A stretch of DNA of 64,000 bases from NCBI GenBank assembly GCA_021298995.1, contig JAJTGB010000012.1, positions 1,486 through 65,485 on the forward strand, read 5' to 3'. A program made the translations under genes and the position numbers. Numbering within the stretch: the stretch's first letter is position 1; each line of letters begins with the position of its first letter. Positions 6,639-7,898 of the stretch are shown in pieces. The notes below the pieces were generated by a model, which searched no databases, was not told the DNA's origin, and worked only from the letters and a program-made list of their open reading frames with translations. This DNA comes from Comamonadaceae bacterium. Its GTDB lineage: Bacteria > Pseudomonadota > Gammaproteobacteria > Burkholderiales > Burkholderiaceae_C.

Positions 6639-7898
6639 ATGTACCAATACATTCAAGTTCCCAAGCAAGGCGCCAAAATCACGGTCAATGCCGACAATTC
6701 ATTGAATGTGCCTCTGAACCCCATCATCCCTTTCATCGAAGGCGATGGCACTGGCGTAGACATTACACCTGTCATGATCAAGGTGGTCAATGCAGCGGTC
6801 AAGCAAGCCTATCAAGGGCAGCGTGAAATTCAGTGGATGGAAGTTTTTGCAGGTCAAAAAGCAACTCAGCATTATGGACCCGATGTGTATTTGCCATCTG
6901 AAACTTTGGCGGCTCTGAAAGAGTTTGTGGTTTCCATCAAAGGCCCCTTGAGTGCACCTTCCTCGGGTCACATTCGGTCCCTGAATGTGGCAATTAGGCA
7001 AGAGCTTGATTTGTTTGCGTGCGTCAGACCACTGCGGTATTTCAAAGGCGTTCCATCGCCCGTTCGGGAGCCTGAAAAAACTAACATCACTTTATTTCGT
7101 GAAAATTCTGAAGACATCTACGCGGGCATTGAATACGCTGCCCAGAGTGAAGCGGCGCAAAAGTTGATTGCTTTTTTAACCACCGAATTGGGTGTTAACA
7201 GCATTAGATTCCCGGAATCATCTGGCATTGGCATTAAGCCGGTTTCTAGCGAAGGCACACAGCGTTTGGTCCGAAAGGCTATTCAATACGCCATTGACCA
7301 CGACAAACCCAGTGTCACTATTGTGCACAAGGGAGCTATCATGAGGTACACAGAAGGTGCCTTTCGCGATTGGGCTTACCAATTGGCAGAAACTGAATTT
7401 GCTGCACAGCGCATCGATGGTGGTCCTTGGTGCCTTGTTCAGAGTCCCAAAACAGGCAAGAGCATCACCATCAAGGACATGGCCATGGACGCTTTCTTGC
7501 AACAAATTTTGATGCGCCCTCAAGAGTTTTCGGTGGTGGCCACTTTGAATCTCAATGGCGACTACATTTCTGATGCGGTCTCCGCTCAAGTGGGGGGCAT
7601 CGGAATTGCCCCCGGCGCCAACATGTCTGACACTGTGGCTTGCTTTGAGGCCACTGTTGATGCTTTTTCAAAGTTTGCAGGCAAAGACTATGTCAACCCT
7701 GGCTCAGAAATTTTGTCCGCAGAAATGATGCTCAGGTACATGGGTTGGACTCAGGCCGCTGACCTCATTGTTCACGCCATGGAAGCTGCAATTCAGAGTA
7801 AAAAAGTGACCCACGACTTTGCCAAGCTCATGGATGGCGCCTCCCAAGTGAGTTGCTCTGGATTTGGTCAGGTGATCATTGACCACATGTCAGTCTAG
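6639..7898 (+). CDS. icd: Homodimeric isocitrate dehydrogenase homologue with degenerate cofactor-binding motifs
   Basis: [54 protein letters not shown] before ATG 6639. Confidence 0.93.

Follow-up and report, generated by a model that had tools for sequence, protein, structure and literature searches.

The window (the whole stretch of 64,000 nucleotides analysed here) carries an intact open reading frame for a protein of the isocitrate dehydrogenase (Icd) family with a remodelled cofactor-binding loop, referred to hereafter as the variant (Table 1). An initial annotation had described the reading frame as full length and preceded by a ribosome-binding site, and both features were confirmed; there are 0 internal stops. 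The product scored above the cut-off of TIGR00183, the family HMM of dimeric NADP-dependent isocitrate dehydrogenase (NADP-IDH), and databases consequently label it as NADP-IDH. Its best relatives are named isocitrate dehydrogenase or NADP-isocitrate dehydrogenase, with source names that point to Limnohabitans. Matches by sequence in the PDB were to 3dms (E 3e-203) and to the E. coli enzyme 1ai2 (E 2e-180); the alignment with 1ai2 has an offset of +1, and residue numbers throughout are those of E. coli Icd. The structure, which was predicted without ligand from an alignment of 112 rows, mostly canonical relatives, superposed on 3dms and 4ajb with an rmsd of 1.0–1.2 Å at 63–71% identity. Sequence and predicted fold together place the protein among the dimeric, subfamily I isocitrate dehydrogenases, and by analogy with that family it is expected to form a homodimer with shared active sites.

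Table 1. Features of the variant icd and its immediate surroundings.
Feature	Position	Strand	Evidence and remarks
DUF1840 gene, ancestral upstream neighbour	5737-6033	+	also beside canonical icd of G119; context, no functional partner
DUF192 gene, ancestral upstream neighbour	6060-6593	-	also beside canonical icd of G119; context, no functional partner
Ribosome-binding site GGAGA, 8 nt upstream of ATG	6626..6630	+	sequence
Remodelled dimeric Icd, 419 aa, intact	6639..7898	+	TIGR00183 652.7 bits, cut-off 567.3; model pLDDT 97.3; TM 0.97 to PDB 3dms and 4ajb
Phosphorylation/closure loop, E. coli 104-110	6951..6971	+	T104 to S/N; T105 to A/P/S/V; highly variable in the clade but almost invariant in canonical Icd
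Isocitrate ligands S113, N115, R119 kept	6978..6998	+	27/27 genomes; 118/118 V339 matches
R129, R153, catalytic Y160 kept	7026..7121	+	alignment; R153 in 117/118 matches
Catalytic K230 kept; NADP contact N232 changed	7329..7337	+	A here; clade S15/G6/N4/A2
I281A, A282M adjoining kept metal ligand D283	7482..7490	+	M282 fixed in 27/27
Metal ligands D307, D311 kept	7560..7574	+	27/27 genomes; 118/118 matches
NADP-binding loop, E. coli 336-345	7647..7676	+	H339V fixed; G340D 21/27; T341 to A/V/P; A342 to L/F/M/H; P343 to S/A; Y345F; E336, K344 kept
2'-phosphate helix	7812..7826	+	Y391H 27/27; R395K 16/27
116-aa ORF, no Pfam/NCBIfam match	7908..8258	+	downstream; syntenic across clade

Further upstream in the window lie a 366-aa open reading frame (4626-5726), which matches nothing in Pfam or NCBIfam and is conserved in synteny throughout the clade described below, and a gene for a stand-alone FMN-binding glutamate-synthase-like protein (PF01645; 2911-4569), found upstream of icd in 11 of the compared loci. 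No pathway clue or partner gene was found among the icd neighbours at the compared loci. A promoter and terminator scan gave nothing exceeding shuffled controls. Contigs of the RNA-library run X15 span most of the variant icd and its neighbours, and those of X17 little of them; such contigs cannot show transcription.

The initial annotation had listed five motifs as changed relative to E. coli Icd, and alignment placed all five where it had put them, with the K100 codon at 6939 and the NADP-loop motif at 7647-7676. The changes of HKGNIMK to HKGAIMR and of KDVIAD to KDMAMD are present against the E. coli chain. The change giving VTHDFAK is likewise real, but the form quoted for E. coli, VTYDFAR, was wrong: E. 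coli has VTYDFER, and VTYDFAR is the form of the family. The initial annotation had also allowed for substitutions without read support. The changes are not an assembly error, because contigs of two other studies (run X5, covering 7229-7693, and run X7, covering 7078-7696) matched with 0 differing letters and V339 was present in 118 of the best 120 database matches.

A search of 127 Limnohabitans genomes revealed dimeric icd in 38, comprising 29 with the variant (27 full length, two cut by contig ends) and nine with a canonical gene; at a threshold of E 1e-60, no dimeric icd was found in the other 89. Among the 69 high-quality genomes of the genus, 19 have one. In an even sample of 400 genomes of the family, dimeric Icd was present in 331, a tally that takes in one unpublished genome (G294); the best was 77% identical to the variant and the 29 best-scoring were all canonical. 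The variant Icds formed one clade (support 1.0) with a long stem of 0.22 substitutions per site, sister to a canonical Limnohabitans group. The canonical icd of G022, a genome with 9% contamination, grouped outside the genus and was left out of the canonical codon-model dN/dS given below. The variant gene occupies the ancestral site, with DUF1840-DUF192 on one side and the 116-aa reading frame on the other, as does the canonical icd of G119. We conclude that the variant is the ancestral dimeric icd, remodelled once.

A tree was built from 110 of the 116 monomeric isocitrate dehydrogenases of the genus, and in it 27 variant genomes fell into one clade (0.988) together with four genomes lacking the gene (G066, G144, G029 and G129). 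The flanks are joined and icd is gone in G066 (100% complete) and G144. In G066, which lies inside the clade, the deletion is clean (L230:947-1839) and leaves DUF192 59 bases from the downstream reading frame; since the 116-aa reading frame is still present there, it does not depend on icd. In G029 (97% complete) the variant and both flanks are missing and the DUF1840 gene is cut at a contig end, an assembly gap and not a loss, while G129 (69% complete) was counted as neither.

Ten substrate, metal and catalytic residues (S113, N115, R119, R129, R153, Y160, K230, D283, D307 and D311) are invariant in the 27 full-length variant genomes, with codons shuffled beneath them; nine are present in all 118 V339 matches and R153 in 117. 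The initial annotation had correctly given these ten as retained, along with E336 and K344. Its picture of an intact substrate site holds for these residues and breaks down at T105, an anchor of isocitrate (PMC3521221), which is found in 0/27 variant and 56/56 canonical Icds, so that isocitrate binding is probably not wholly untouched. The whole 104-110 loop has turned from a near-invariant stretch into the most relaxed part of the protein, with an entropy over positions 100-109 of 0.66 in the variant clade as compared with 0.02 in canonical Icds. This is not merely the consequence of lost recognition by AceK, because the canonical Limnohabitans group sister to the variants, in which aceK is missing too, keeps the loop.

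The dinucleotide loop of NADP-IDH has likewise been dismantled, and N232 is mostly replaced: H339 remains in 0/27, G340 in 6/27, T341 in 1/27, P343 in 0/27 and N232 in 4/27 variant genomes. G340 is invariant across all 12 isocitrate dehydrogenases of Table 2 in PMC3521221, monomeric ones included. Among the residues facing the 2'-phosphate, K344 and R292 are kept in 27/27, Y345 in 1/27, Y391 in 0/27 and R395 in 11/27, the rest having Lys. Positions differ within the clade as well (D or G at 340; A, V, T or P at 341; L, F, M or H at 342; S, G, A or N at 232), and the Pro at 341, seen in 1/27 genomes and 2/118 matches, removes a backbone NH. Such variation at 340-343 and 232 reads as relaxation and not as a refitted pocket. 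Of the 17 positions at which constraint was gained, most show conservative hydrophobic exchanges, and no newly conserved surface patch or partner surface was evident among them.

As the initial annotation had proposed, the changes cluster in the cofactor site. When only positions with 95% or higher invariance among 56 canonical Icds were considered, 7/18 NADP contacts were changed as compared with 18/211 others (odds ratio 6.8, Fisher p 0.001), in a test that is over sites, of one evolutionary event, and that takes its contact list from PMC8623467. Nine NADP contacts (K100, L103, N115, E336, Q287, Q288, R292, K344 and N352) are kept in 27/27. The changed positions, which we take to span the adenine pocket, the pyrophosphate loop, the 2'-phosphate and the nicotinamide ribose sub-sites, extend over the entire cofactor site (T104, T105, N232, H339-A342, Y345, Y391 and R395), and it is therefore likely, as judged from sequence, that the variant binds no NADP and no longer oxidises isocitrate.

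An exchange of NADP for NAD does not account for the pattern, in agreement with the initial annotation. The NAD-specific dimeric isocitrate dehydrogenases (K344D/Y345I; engineered 1ISO, natural 2d4v) share with the variant altered 2'-phosphate residues and the same fold. However, the variant has no Asp-Ile pair at 344-345 of the kind described in PMC3521221, with K344 in 27/27 and F345 in 26/27, and its His-Gly loop is itself changed. It resembles dimeric NADP-IDH of subfamily I (E. coli Icd, 1ai2/4ajb; Burkholderia pseudomallei Icd, 3dms; EC 1.1.1.42) in fold, length, the ten residues and K344, and departs from it in the H339-P343 loop, Y345, Y391, N232, T104, T105, I281 and A282, as well as in a genomic setting without AceK and with a monomeric isocitrate dehydrogenase. 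The variant thus belongs to the Icd family by fold and HMM, lacks the cofactor loop and T105 of the enzyme, and is better not classified as an NADP-IDH enzyme; the residue pattern makes it probable that it is not a normal one.

The initial annotation had also asked whether loss of HGTAP defines a clade under purifying selection, and it does. Pairwise dN/dS among the variants had a median of 0.062 (range 0.039-0.166; 255 unsaturated of 351 pairs) with a median pS of 0.67, as compared with 0.072 among canonical congeners (27 of 28 pairs). Under a codon model the ratio was 0.060 across 19 genomes with the variant; the monomeric idh of these genomes came out at 0.045, and canonical icd, in 7 genomes, at 0.053. 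All 27 full-length copies encode 417-419 aa without an internal stop, and V339, M282, H391, F296 and V313 are fixed while their codons differ synonymously. The variant icd is under purifying selection and its constraint is normal. Simple decay of a redundant gene, which should show as a dN/dS near 1 with frameshifted relatives, is contradicted by the low dN/dS, the intact copies and the fixed new residues. The absence of a dimeric icd match from 89/127 congeners, the one clean loss inside the clade and the partial erosion seen elsewhere would suit such decay, which we nevertheless regard as scarcely credible.

The initial annotation had supposed that TCA flux is carried by another isocitrate dehydrogenase, and one is available. 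Monomeric isocitrate dehydrogenase is present in 116/127 genomes of the genus and in 68/69 high-quality ones; the protein of G000 is intact (TIGR00178, 1362 bits), with its motifs aligned to PDB 5kvu, and the enzyme can carry TCA flux. Isocitrate lyase was found in 71/71 genomes searched (70 at least 90% complete, and G000). The coexistence of monomeric and dimeric forms with isocitrate lyase in one cell is shared with Pseudomonas aeruginosa and P. putida, and in P. putida the dimeric ICD is reported to be the dispensable one of the two (PMC13660168). Unlike the setting of the variant, the ICD of Pseudomonas is described as active and AceK-regulated (10.1101/318345).

AceK is almost absent from the genus, with aceK in 2/127 genomes (G119 and G012) as compared with 124/150 family genomes, and the 29 variant genomes hold one doubtful fragment, that of G012, which is not the distribution of an AceK-regulated Icd. 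In G119 and G012, aceK lies directly behind a carbonic anhydrase gene. At all four variant loci that extend so far (G001, G006, G116 and G127), a thiolase-like reading frame comes immediately after the carbonic anhydrase gene, without aceK; a fifth locus, in G110, ends at that point. The G012 fragment sits on a contig end, and this contig is probably mis-binned, since its carbonic anhydrase shares just 80% identity with the enzyme of the closest relative, G127. G119 (99% complete) has canonical icd and aceK at the same loci and is the sole high-quality genome without a monomeric isocitrate dehydrogenase match (L086, L087, L060); its gene set is likely to be the ancestral state and offers a natural control.

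This distribution bears on two roles that the initial annotation had put forward, a decoy for AceK and a regulatory subunit of an Icd heterodimer. No intact variant genome has more than a single dimeric Icd, and in G000 the only paralogues of this fold are two tartrate dehydrogenases (TtuC) and LeuB, which leaves a heteromer without a candidate partner. The phosphorylation site S113 is kept in 27/27 and one variant genome does have the aceK fragment, as a decoy would call for; however, S113 is a substrate ligand anyway, and the loop recognised by AceK is the most relaxed part of the protein. With aceK missing and no second dimeric Icd present, both roles are removed from consideration as extremely improbable.

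The nine retained NADP contacts argue against a full loss of cofactor binding. Together with the retention of all catalytic residues and the survival of G340, N232 and R395 in some genomes, they would fit a detuned dehydrogenase, with low affinity for NADP or use of another pyridine nucleotide, acting as an overflow valve that lets isocitrate lyase compete without AceK. Milder erosion of the 104-110 and NADP loops was seen in 5/30 other family genomes, which were picked for a low score or for lack of aceK, and hence by trait and not at random. These five (G469, L255; G473, L244; G339, L251; G182, L249; G371, L261) belong to three other genera; all have monomeric isocitrate dehydrogenase and none has aceK, consistent with recurrent attenuation. 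G469 shares Y391H and T341A with the variant clade. On the other hand, H339V is fixed, residue 342 is always bulky and the pocket positions vary and do not look refitted. Loss of aceK alone does not force detuning, because a seven-genome canonical Limnohabitans group and most of the aceK-less family genomes checked keep normal motifs. Mutation of the His equivalent to H339 in the pig enzyme reportedly abolishes activity. We consider a detuned dehydrogenase rather unlikely, and place it closely behind the two readings that follow.

The same pattern of kept and changed residues would suit a non-catalytic protein that binds isocitrate or citrate-metal, as a sensor or buffer regulating isocitrate lyase, monomeric isocitrate dehydrogenase or aconitase, or in a moonlighting role, and that replaces the lost AceK switch. 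The Icd fold has yielded citrate- and ADP-sensing subunits before: in human IDH3 gamma and yeast IDH1, likewise of the isocitrate dehydrogenase fold, the active site has been turned into a ligand site (PMC5241874). The disappearance of aceK from the variant clade would fit such a replacement. Codon use of the variant icd is average (51st-61st percentile, whereas monomeric idh, gltA and mdh stand at 93-99), which hints weakly at reduced expression; the comparison is built on two to four reference genes. However, IDH3 gamma and yeast IDH1 pair with a catalytic subunit, whereas the variant genomes have no second dimeric Icd and no partner gene nearby, and no newly conserved surface patch is evident. 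Non-catalytic human IDH3 gamma is described as binding Mg via Asn78 and Arg272 (PMC5241874), whereas the variant, which is about 28-29% identical to the IDH3 chains, keeps all three aspartates and thus the whole canonical metal site. The isocitrate anchor T105 is lost as well. Between a sensor and a cofactor-free enzyme we rank the enzyme slightly higher, and a binding-only role seems to us rather unlikely.

The reading that we place first, as possible rather than probable, is a cofactor-free, metal-dependent beta-keto-acid decarboxylase that would, for example, clear oxalomalate. In the Icd mechanism, the decarboxylation half-reaction uses the metal aspartates, Y160 and K230'. In cells with monomeric isocitrate dehydrogenase and without aceK, an Icd that cannot be switched off may have ceased to be needed, or have come to weigh on the isocitrate branch point. 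Dimeric icd would then have been deleted in most of the genus, and the variant clade would have disabled the half of the enzyme that transfers hydride and kept the second half-reaction, which would need only metal (D283', D307, D311), Y160 and K230'. Retained chemistry is favoured because the ten substrate, metal and catalytic residues are invariant under a codon-model dN/dS this low. CitM of the malic-enzyme family, a soluble protein that decarboxylates oxaloacetate (PMC6193673), provides an analogy only, in that a member of an oxidative-decarboxylase family acts as a beta-keto-acid decarboxylase; it belongs to an unrelated family, its gene lies in a citrate operon and its substrate is established, whereas no such operon is known for the variant icd.

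The substrate is speculative and would be an oxalosuccinate-like by-product. Oxalomalate spontaneously decays. It forms non-enzymatically from glyoxylate and oxaloacetate, inhibits isocitrate dehydrogenase and aconitase, and is decarboxylated to an approximately ten-fold weaker inhibitor (PMC4945632). The combination of glyoxylate and oxaloacetate is a strong inhibitor of isocitrate dehydrogenase in its monomeric as well as its dimeric form (10.1101/318345). Because this pair inhibits both enzymes and the decarboxylated product inhibits less, oxalomalate appears the most plausible candidate, and its removal would benefit cells in which the glyoxylate shunt operates and AceK is absent.

Several observations count against a decarboxylase. 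Substrate binding, too, involves Y160, K230 and the aspartates, and their retention would suit a binding-only protein as well. Oxalosuccinate, which is described as heat-labile (PMC13147460), and oxalomalate are labile without an enzyme, and a need for one is accordingly doubtful; nor does free oxalosuccinate have a known source in these cells. No match to dimeric icd was found in 89/127 congeners although the shunt is genus-wide, and G066 and G144 have lost the gene; no neighbouring gene points to a pathway. A wider version of the decarboxylase reading is slightly more doubtful than the reading itself: Icd would have been turned into a metabolite-repair decarboxylase of oxalomalate or a related beta-keto acid, protecting monomeric isocitrate dehydrogenase and aconitase in aceK-less bacteria with the shunt, and the milder erosion in three other genera, which share this gene set, would mark a path along which a TCA dehydrogenase has repeatedly acquired a new function.

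The cofactor loop of Icd, a textbook enzyme, is near-invariant, and the changes known from bacteria exchange NADP for NAD. Here an abundant freshwater clade retains, under undiminished selection, a form that can probably use neither, while most of its relatives have dropped the gene. Annotation as NADP-IDH leads metabolic models to count a source of NADPH that may not exist. Whether decarboxylase, sensor of the isocitrate dehydrogenase fold or detuned valve, each reading, if true, would show the isocitrate branch point run without AceK, and G066 and G006 form a natural pair without and with the variant icd. No published description of an Icd stripped of its cofactor site was found, in a literature search that covered subscription journals poorly and took in no supplements.

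Five other Icd-like proteins (P0142, P0147, P0152, P0155 and P0254), full length or nearly so and 38-43% identical to the variant, were seen by eye to lack several substrate and metal ligands and the His-Gly loop, whereas the variant clade keeps all those ligands. Inspection by eye suggests that they are separate, more deeply degenerate pseudo-Icd families. His-Gly-Thr/Ser is missing in 12/80 representatives with a readable loop.

The isocitrate lyase of the variant clade (L126-L130) has an intact catalytic motif and represents a distinct subtype, marked by a 3-residue deletion, to which by match length the enzyme of G119 also belongs; its gene does not adjoin monomeric idh, unlike in many other congeners. 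There was no co-loss of this subtype with the variant icd, as G066, which lacks the variant, still has it. In the tree of monomeric isocitrate dehydrogenases, there is a long internal branch (0.13-0.15) in the sub-clade to which G000 belongs (L035 and related loci), a split absent from the icd tree, which suggests gene replacement or fast change.
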